In this document: piece after piece, positions 9,919 to 12,101 of the stretch
Layout of the letters: each line of letters begins with the position of its first letter
Numbering within the stretch: the stretch's first letter is position 1
IMG/VR virus record: IMGVR_UViG_3300049215_000527
Location: 1-21,177 of that record
DNA from: a virus
Strand: one strand, 5' to 3'
DNA length: 21,177 nt
Translations under genes and position numbers: made by a program
Notes under the pieces: model-generated
What the model was told of the DNA's origin: nothing
Seen by the model: the letters and a program-made list of their open reading frames with translations, nothing else
Databases searched by the model: none

Positions 9919-10451
9919 CCGAACGTGTAGTGCATGTGATGAAAGACGCATATGATTGCTACATTGGCCGTGCCGACCGCTTCCGCCACCTACCCAAGAG
10001 CAAGTGGCACAACCCCTTCGTCATCGGCAAACATGGCGACCGTGCCGAGGTGCTGGCCCGCTACGAAGCATACATCCGCGAGCGGCCCGACCTCATGGCG
10101 GCGTTGCCGGAATTGCGGGGTCTGACGCTCGCGTGCTGGTGTGCAGAGAAGGGCGGCGTCGGTGTCGATGATGAGTTGGTGTGTCATGGGCAGGTGCTCT
10201 TGCGCCTGCTCAGGGAGACGACGCCGATGCTGACGTTGCCACAGGGTCAGTGGTTCGCCCGCAATGGCCCCGGCACGCGCTGGCACATCACCACAGGGCA
10301 TGGCACAGGCATCTGTGGCAAGGTGTTGCACATTGATGCGAAGGGCATGGGGCAACAGGCAGTGCCAGGCGACGTGTGCAAGCGATGCGCACGGCTGGCA
10401 GGCAAAACGAGTTTGCCACATATTGCAGAAATTGGTGGTACTAGGGCTTGA
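9915..10451 (+). CDS. DUF4326 domain protein with C-terminal Cys/His module
   Basis: YDCYIGR...SKWHNPF...ELRGLTLACWC...CHGQVL, then WH...CGK...CKRC. Start at ATGA 9915. Confidence 0.88.
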   Translation: MTERVVHVMKDAYDCYIGRADRFRHLPKSKWHNPFVIGKHGDRAEVLARYEAYIRERPDLMAALPELRGLTLACWCAEKGGVGVDDELVCHGQVLLRLLRETTPMLTLPQGQWFARNGPGTRWHITTGHGTGICGKVLHIDAKGMGQQAVPGDVCKRCARLAGKTSLPHIAEIGGTRA

Positions 10452-10480
10452 CATTGAATTGATATGGGTGTATAATTCAA
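10448..10480 (+). promoter_or_regulatory. Perfect consensus sigma70 promoter with overlapping inverted repeat
   Basis: TTGACA 10448-10453, 17-nt spacer, TATAAT 10471-10476. IR ttgaatt 10454-10460 / aattcaa 10474-10480. Confidence 0.92.
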
Positions 10481-10520
10481 ATGTCGATAGGGACAAACAA
10501 AACTAAAGAGGAACGAAACA

Positions 10521-11453: not shown

Positions 11454-11662
11454 GCCAGCGCAAGCTCAAGATCACCAGTGGTGAAAAGGCCCACAGCGCA
11501 CGTGTGCTGGATAGCGAGACGGGGCAAGAAATCGCTGATGTGCTCAGTGTCGATATCCACATGACCGCCGATGGGGTGACGGCGACGATCACCCTCTATC
11601 AGCCTCTCATTGACATTGTGGCTGAGGGCAGCATTCTCAGCATTAAGGACGATCATGACTGA
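11450..11662 (+). CDS. Hypothetical beta-rich phage protein
   Basis: GGAGG RBS. Overlaps at both ends. Confidence 0.7.
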   Translation: MSQRKLKITSGEKAHSARVLDSETGQEIADVLSVDIHMTADGVTATITLYQPLIDIVAEGSILSIKDDHD

Positions 11663-12101
11663 CGTGCAATCGATCTGCCTGATGGTGATCATCCTGGCGA
11701 GCTTCGCGTTCTTCGCATTCGTGGTGTGGATCGATAGCCGTTCTCCAAAACTTACCCAAATAGGACAAGCCTACTCCGTGTTTGGTTCCTGCTTCACCGA
11801 GACTGCCGTTAGTGCAAGCACCATTGGTCTTAGGATCTCTCCACAGGCGTCGATTTCCGCTGAACTAGCGGTATACTCTCCGGACGATCAACGTGCAGTC
11901 CTGCCGAAAGAACGTGGTTTTTGTTCTCTGCGACCAGACCATCTGTTGGTATTCTACCACAAAAGGGGAGATTTGGGTATGGAAATAGGAATTATTTACA
12001 ACCCCCGACGTGAGCCGCGTGGGCATGGGGCATCGCCCACCAAGACGCCACAGTACCCGCCCAAGGGAGGGCGACCCCCACAGAAACGAGGGCAGCCATG
12101 A
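11655..12101 (+). CDS. Small membrane-anchored protein carrying an in-frame 264-bp insertion
   Basis: AAGGA RBS. TM segment ICLMVIILASFAFFAFVVWI. Basic Pro-rich tail ends in an ATGA overlap. Confidence 0.65.
   Translation: MTDVQSICLMVIILASFAFFAFVVWIDSRSPKLTQIGQAYSVFGSCFTETAVSASTIGLRISPQASISAELAVYSPDDQRAVLPKERGFCSLRPDHLLVFYHKRGDLGMEIGIIYNPRREPRGHGASPTKTPQYPPKGGRPPQKRGQP
11718..11944 (-). ncRNA. Putative orphan TnpB omegaRNA (scaffold plus flank-derived guide)
   Basis: Extended -10 TGgTAGAAT at 11959-11951 (-). The retained region is the tnpB 3' tail plus right end, which encodes omegaRNA in these families. The guide would be about ctatcgatccacaccacgaa. Ends are approximate. Confidence 0.55.
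11738..12003 (-). mobile_element. Non-autonomous miniature IS607/IS605-family (tnpB-derived) element
   Basis: - strand 11875-11771 reads YTASSAEIDACGE...SVKQEPNTE*, the typical TnpB C-terminal tail. It ends ...gggtaagttttggagaacGG and has GG at both boundaries. AT-richer than flanks. Confidence 0.75.

Follow-up and report, generated by a model that had tools for sequence, protein, structure and literature searches.

A protein-less IS607 mini-element with a complete guide-RNA scaffold and a conserved tnpB hairpin inside a phage gene

What is a short, AT-richer block doing inside a phage gene, and how could it persist with no protein of its own? The window analyzed here (the whole stretch of 21,177 nucleotides) covers the start, 21 kb, of a linear virus record of 85 kb, which is estimated to be 83% complete and is present in moss metagenomes and metatranscriptomes. 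The record encodes integrase, DnaB, DNA methylase, and terminase, which indicates a temperate tailed phage. Its terminase is 60% identical to a terminase in a Ktedonobacteria genome, and the host is probably a member of the Ktedonobacteria, judging from this protein and from the nearest relatives of the inserted element. Ktedonobacteria genome G154 (C1) has two equally scoring terminase copies 40 kb apart (5057970 and 5098157), 60% identical to the phage protein.

The block at 11738-12001 is 264 bp long, with CC at 11738-39 and 12002-03. Its GC content is 48.1%, compared to 59.1% for the genome, and equally low GC occurs in 2.4% of windows. It is single copy in the phage. The original prediction took it for an IS607 derivative that had lost its protein genes by deletion and had kept both ends, a promoter, and a guide-RNA scaffold. 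The composition, the CC borders, and the other sequence features that it described were all found at the positions given, and the parts are listed here together with further features, among them a hairpin and the open host ORF across the insert, which it had not noted.

12002..12006, minus strand: TAM of five G, target-derived (flanks of 34 relatives, consensus G(G/A)GGG)
12003-12002, minus strand: recombination core at the left junction, the last two G of the TAM (register from locus L024)
11951..12001, minus strand: IS607 left end, 51 bp (45/51 identical to L167, 42/51 to L168)
11951..11959, minus strand: extended -10 box (TG 11959-58, TAGAAT 11956-51); in full elements, the tnpA promoter
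~11944, minus strand: transcription start predicted from the -10 box
11904..11932, minus strand: conserved hairpin with a 9-nt loop (11922-11914) closed by C-G (sister mini, covariation, tnpB genes)
11877..11903, minus strand: spacer, read by eye as probable decayed tnpB codons near the RuvC-III motif
11876/11877, minus strand: junction to parent-like sequence (parents diverge at 11875-11876)
11738..11876, minus strand: right end and omegaRNA scaffold, 139 bp (RF03064, covariation, L164 identity)
11871-11857, minus strand: first stem-loop of the scaffold
11847-11786, minus strand: RAGATH-18-like part of the scaffold (Rfam RF03064)
~11785-11745, minus strand: last stem of the scaffold
11743-11740, minus strand: pseudoknot partner
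11739-11738, minus strand: terminal GG
11771..11875, minus strand: last 34 tnpB codons and stop, overlapping the scaffold, with no start of their own
11718..11737, minus strand: predicted guide, taken from phage DNA next to the right end (placed as in CboIStron and ISXfa1, where the scaffold includes the terminal G)
11655..12101, plus strand: interrupted phage gene, its ORF open through the insert

The closest full elements, L116 and L167, are about 1950 bp long and carry a resolvase-type tnpA (PF00239) and a tnpB of 433-436 aa (PF01385/PF07282/PF12323); tnpA is broken in both copies. Their ends match the left end and the 139-bp right end of the mini-element (hereafter mini) at 82-91% identity. 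A contig from run X1 leaves the left end at 11950 into the start of tnpA (our own translation), and a contig from the likely source metagenome departs at 11876, where it continues into codons that we interpret as the last part of the RuvC-III motif. An autonomous IS607 element has its own TnpA and TnpB; the mini has only 34 C-terminal tnpB codons, and no tnpA is present in the phage. A search for tnpA and tnpB across the 85-kb record likewise gave no match except this relic. By the similarity of its ends, the block at 11738-12001 belongs to IS607, as originally predicted, and is a non-autonomous member of a Ktedonobacteria-type subfamily.

Both borders can be placed exactly. A 19-base right-end pattern matched 157 metagenome and genome loci, many from Ktedonobacterales, and family conservation ends right after the terminal GG (158 loci). 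In the likely source metagenome, three contigs with the same right end diverge at 11738. Both junctions have a GG core, without terminal inverted repeats or target duplication. The register was fixed by L024 (2135-2410), where a mini lies in the catalytic tyrosine motif of a tyrosine recombinase (integrase) gene and its scarless removal restores the motif exactly. This register gives an element length of 264 bp and rules out a 265-bp boundary, and the scarless insertion indicates that such minis move. No match was found when two right-end patterns were searched in viral contigs, and phage and plasmid BLAST with the element as query returned no useful match. The short motifs that the original prediction noted near both ends are real: a 9-mer shared by the ends is inverted (11979-71 and 11753-61), and an 8-mer is direct. 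These repeats are partly conserved in relatives and are plausible candidate TnpA sites.

A G-rich TAM and a guide taken from the flank had also been anticipated, and the target motif agrees: among 34 relatives, G occurs at -3 in 32 and a purine at -4 in 33, giving the consensus G(G/A)GGG, and the phage site has five G at the left junction. The predicted guide has no second close match in the phage genome.

The tnpB relic and the -10 box match their earlier description. The 34 codons (11875-11774) are 82% identical to residues 400-433 of full TnpB (E 2e-11) and end in a stop at 11773-71; an in-frame stop lies five codons upstream, and the RuvC-III motif is missing. In full elements, the tnpA ATG lies 6 nt past the extended -10 box. 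Our promoter scanner requires a -35 element and missed this box, which is predicted from its sequence as a candidate promoter.

RAGATH-18 RNAs mark IS607 guide RNAs: IS607 TnpB with a RAGATH-18-derived reRNA has been characterized, and the GAGGG class of TAM was measured (PMC11061315). Rfam model RF03064 (RAGATH-18) aligns over its full length at 11847-11786 with 30.6 bits, below the gathering cut-off of 44.9 (E 3e-5 per genome). Related minis score 26-30 bits, and we file the scaffold as RAGATH-18-like, below the Rfam gathering cut-off. Among 35 relatives, 92.6% of scaffold cells are paired compared to 75.4% in shuffles, with 27 pairs changed on both sides. The loop-to-terminus pseudoknot in this set is 99.3% complementary yet invariant, so it counts as complementarity only. 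Our covariance model R1 gives the window 100.1 bits (it is in the training set) and the untrained L164 and L167 100.5 and 103.2 bits. Single-sequence folding of the scaffold is uninformative (z 0.8). Judged by covariation in its three stem-loop regions, the omegaRNA scaffold is complete, in line with the original prediction, and its arrangement matches that of CboIStron and ISXfa1.

Contig L164 contains an intact tnpB whose end is identical to 11875-11738 at 138/138 positions, and an intact tnpB of the cognate type is present in the same moss data sets. In L164 (1248-2237), the same phage flank is joined to that tnpB, which is open for 318 aa up to the point where the contig stops; the join reflects either a full-length element occupying this site in another allele or a chimeric assembly through the 138 bp that both share.

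Comparison of loci sharing this right end indicated that the mini has relatives of the same design. Same-ended copies and tnpA/tnpB-bearing parents, which the original prediction led us to seek, were found (L116, L167, and a sister mini). Upstream DNA was long enough for this comparison at 117 loci, and 51 of them lack any tnpA or tnpB match, a figure that includes some fragments and chance matches. About 19 have a left end that could be mapped, at 260-450 bp from the right end. The sister mini, in a Ktedonobacteria genome, is collinear, also 264 bp, 77% identical, and intergenic; its -10 box is degenerate. By these comparisons, the mini is a member of a dispersed family, not a one-off deletion. 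The deletion origin proposed earlier therefore stands in part: the ends, the box, and the scaffold were kept, but a single deletion does not fit a dispersed family of the same length or a conserved hairpin module unlike the tnpB of the closest parent.

That hairpin (11932-11904) is formed by the 74-bp middle of the element and has a conserved 9-nt loop with the core AAAACCA. The middle has no DNA match to the phage or the parents. Capture from the phage was rejected for want of a match; copying from the closest parent was rejected on the same ground and because the parent loop differs. Compared to the sister mini, the loop is identical at 9/9 positions and the stem arms at about 50%. The loop is kept in 20 of 43 tnpB-less loci, 197-238 bp from the right end, and is missing from some minis (L175, L178) and some tnpB genes. 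In 18 minis, 97 of 108 stem cells are paired compared to 66 in shuffles, and a mixed alignment that includes minis (A2) gives 86.7% paired compared to 59.4% in shuffles. A promoter-like box lies just upstream of the hairpin in 10 of the 18 minis (1.3 in shuffles), often 28-29 nt before the loop. All hairpin comparisons use related sequences, so the counts are non-independent and significance is overstated.

The same loop occurs inside tnpB genes, about 450 bp from the right end and 5-12 codons before the RuvC-II glutamate. In IS607-type tnpB genes with the peptide (n=37), the loop is read as A-K-T-K, and each codon is the same in 35-37 of the 37 genes. A mostly cyanobacterial set uses a different frame for the loop bases and reads them as K-N-H or E-N-Q. 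There, AAC encodes Asn in 26/27 (background 44%) and CAC encodes His in 17/17 (background 39%); a nearby control motif is unbiased. Conservation in two reading frames with fixed synonymous sites indicates constraint at the nucleotide level. The tnpB stem is more stable than synonymous shuffles in 60/62 sequences and is weaker in the mostly cyanobacterial set, and covariation in the stem points to RNA as the constrained molecule. The loop is found across phyla in IS607 and IS605 elements, including tnpB genes on plasmids of E. coli, Salmonella, Klebsiella, Bacillus, and Enterococcus, several of them annotated as IS200/IS605. Because the hairpin accompanies both unrelated transposase types, its distribution points to a link with TnpB, not TnpA. 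A DNA site for TnpA was rejected on the same ground and because some minis dispense with the hairpin; pairing of the loop with the right end was rejected because the best duplex is only 4 bp. A literature search, mostly without subscription papers, found no description of a conserved tnpB loop or hairpin; the closest published feature was the inhibitory stretch next to RuvC-II in AmaTnpB mRNA (PMC10278001).

Published short guide RNAs work without such a module (PMC11061315, PMC10711439), so the hairpin is not essential for cutting. We tentatively favor a TnpB-linked recognition site for guide-RNA loading or processing, with slightly less than even confidence; a role in stability, in inhibition, or as a host-factor site ranks lower. 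With similar reserve, we suggest that many IS605 and IS607 TnpB systems might use a second RNA module, a 9-nt-loop hairpin within tnpB before RuvC-II that would serve as a loading or processing signal or as half of a two-module guide RNA. The minis would then be minimal fusions of module and scaffold, and the K-N-H/E-N-Q motif would be partly a shadow of RNA constraint.

The interrupted gene (ORF 11655-12101, plus strand) encodes a 148-aa read-through product when filled and a 60-aa protein with an N-terminal hydrophobic helix when empty. It overlaps both neighboring genes, and the downstream overlap is kept with the insert. No homologue was found, including with the 60-aa empty protein as query. 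The sister mini has the same length and the same open reverse frame at its intergenic site, and the reverse frames of other minis are open in 8 of 48; read-through thus needs no adaptation. Trimming of the length in the phage to hold the frame was rejected, since the sister is also 264 bp. Read-through of the host gene is best described, from these comparisons, as a tolerated insertion for which a special mechanism seems unnecessary.

The small-gene operon holding the mini appears to be transcribed. Two metatranscriptome contigs start at 10491, owing to a perfect sigma-70 promoter on the plus strand at 10448-10476. Metatranscriptome contigs also span the element, but contigs do not reveal RNA strand or ends, and the strong promoter upstream reads on the plus strand. 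For this reason we set aside two features of run X3: a contig depth that changes from 37-51 on the left of about 11930 to 8 on the right of 11945, and a contig that runs into adapter at 11928.

IS607 homing has been shown in cis (bioRxiv 2023.11.20.567912), and action in trans has been proposed for PATE-like elements (PMC10055086). CboIStron and ISXfa1 guide RNA works from a separate promoter (bioRxiv 2023.11.20.567912, PMC10711439). By analogy, the mini likely borrows host TnpA and TnpB for its own retention. We consider it somewhat probable that it is a selfish, protein-less IS607 mini that depends for both enzymes on full-length copies in its host, probably a member of the Ktedonobacteria lysogenized or infected by the temperate phage. 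First, the host TnpA serine recombinase, recognizing the ends present here, would insert the mini at a G-rich site through the GG core, and scarless excision would be possible. Second, the -10 box at the left end would drive an RNA of about 220 nt consisting of hairpin, spacer, scaffold, and flank guide. Third, host TnpB would load this RNA and, as in characterized IS607 systems, cut the empty site, in which TAM and guide match are adjacent. A filled allele would be spared, its own end occupying the place of the TAM, and repair from a filled copy would restore the element. Fourth, the conserved 5' hairpin may act as a cis-acting signal, which in full elements would lie inside the tnpB mRNA just before RuvC-II. 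The occurrence of minis at chromosomal sites also fits selfish retention.

A passive mini, mobile through TnpA but with its RNA unmade or unloaded, and with scaffold and hairpin inherited or kept by recombination with full elements, is unlikely but has some observations in its favor. The promoter box of the sister is decayed, and the sister (118/139) is less similar to the right end of the phage copy than full elements are (138/138 for L164, 127/139 for L167), which suggests that minis recombine with resident full parents and have done so recently. Against passivity, compensatory changes occur in both scaffold and hairpin in alignments that include minis, different promoter-like boxes lie at a similar distance from the hairpin, and the loop is fixed where its flanks drift.

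It is improbable that the RNA is instead a regulator or decoy whose hairpin inhibits or titrates TnpB, in the manner of the AmaTnpB mRNA stretch that inhibits cleavage in vitro. Nety et al. (2023, PMC10278001) mapped that inhibitory region adjoining RuvC-II, in the same neighborhood as the hairpin, so in both cases a functional RNA feature lies in tnpB by RuvC-II. However, AmaTnpB is a single IS605-type orthologue for which no conserved hairpin or loop is described, and the position differs slightly: its key 50 nt apparently lie just after the catalytic Glu (our estimate from the protein sequence), whereas the loop lies 5-12 codons before it. The authors propose pairing with the guide RNA (PMC10278001), but the best loop-scaffold duplex here is only 4 bp, and the loop stays fixed where right ends differ (L198).

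Exclusion of related phages that carry the empty site, by a homing device domesticated by the phage, had been put forward earlier and is very improbable as a selected function: it would follow mechanically in co-infection if transcription and TnpB loading hold, the host gene is left in frame, and L198, a different viral contig, also contains a mini, but no empty allele or homologous gene was found, the same design occurs at chromosomal sites, and the length and open reverse frame are common to the intergenic sister, with 8/48 other reverse frames open. The empty site expected in related phages was sought by an exact IMG/VR scan, flanking-protein scans, a 60-aa protein search, and reads, and no empty-site joint was found in four runs; this is absence of data, not evidence of absence.

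The closest known systems share some of these features. The ISFba1 reRNA (PMC11061315) has a RAGATH-18-like core, a 5' stem-loop able to form a pseudoknot with the last bases, a GAGGG-class TAM, and a right-flank guide, as here; unlike ISFba1, the mini has no protein, its scaffold overlaps the tnpB 3' end whereas the reRNA of that paper is separate from the ORF, and it has an extra upstream hairpin. CboIStron (bioRxiv 2023.11.20.567912) and ISXfa1 (PMC10711439) share the GG core, the lack of inverted repeats and target duplication, a scaffold ending in GG, and a G-rich TAM, but the mini lacks intron, tnpA, and tnpB, and natural use in trans is our inference here. PATE-like IS200/IS605 derivatives (Meers et al., PMC10055086) are also protein-less, keep both ends, and often carry omegaRNA. 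In contrast, the mini has IS607 ends (serine recombinase, GG core) instead of palindromic HUH ends, and a retained internal tnpB hairpin is undescribed there. Its parents encode a resolvase-type TnpA and HUH Y1 ends are lacking, so it is PATE-like in its working but is not a PATE. Protein-less guide-RNA minis are a known kind of element; the retained hairpin is the new part.

The mini offers a clean example, bacterial and phage-borne, of a known idea: a transposon that has nothing but a guide RNA and would depend on the enzymes of its host. The steps by which TnpB locates its guide within its own mRNA and matures it are understood only in part. Because most editing constructs are codon-optimized and contain a short guide, they would erase such a hairpin unnoticed. 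At 220 nt, the minis are convenient substrates for tests, with synonymous changes to tnpB as a clean control.

Other loci in the collection show further arrangements. Shorter minis at L175 and L178 (both 1501-1730) consist of a left end, a -35/-10 promoter, and a scaffold, without the hairpin, and so serve as natural controls. At L198 (1782-2100), the terminase large-subunit gene of a provirus fragment is split by a mini that belongs to another subfamily but has this hairpin loop; the gene apparently also has an endonuclease-like insertion upstream. At L169 (1501-1780) and L075, elements are inserted a few bases ahead of an ATG, in a run of G-rich sequence that resembles a Shine-Dalgarno site, and the guide would span the start of the downstream gene. 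Locus L020 (4750-5067) keeps both ends around an interior of simple 4-base repeats, and L090 (8190-8558) apparently has two tandem left ends. One Ktedonobacterales genome contains tnpA-less tnpB elements (L117, L118, L134-L146) in which the left end is followed by a new -35/-10 promoter and a leader ahead of tnpB. A close tnpB relative (L221, 2844-4302) lies directly upstream of a methyltransferase-Mrr fusion gene.
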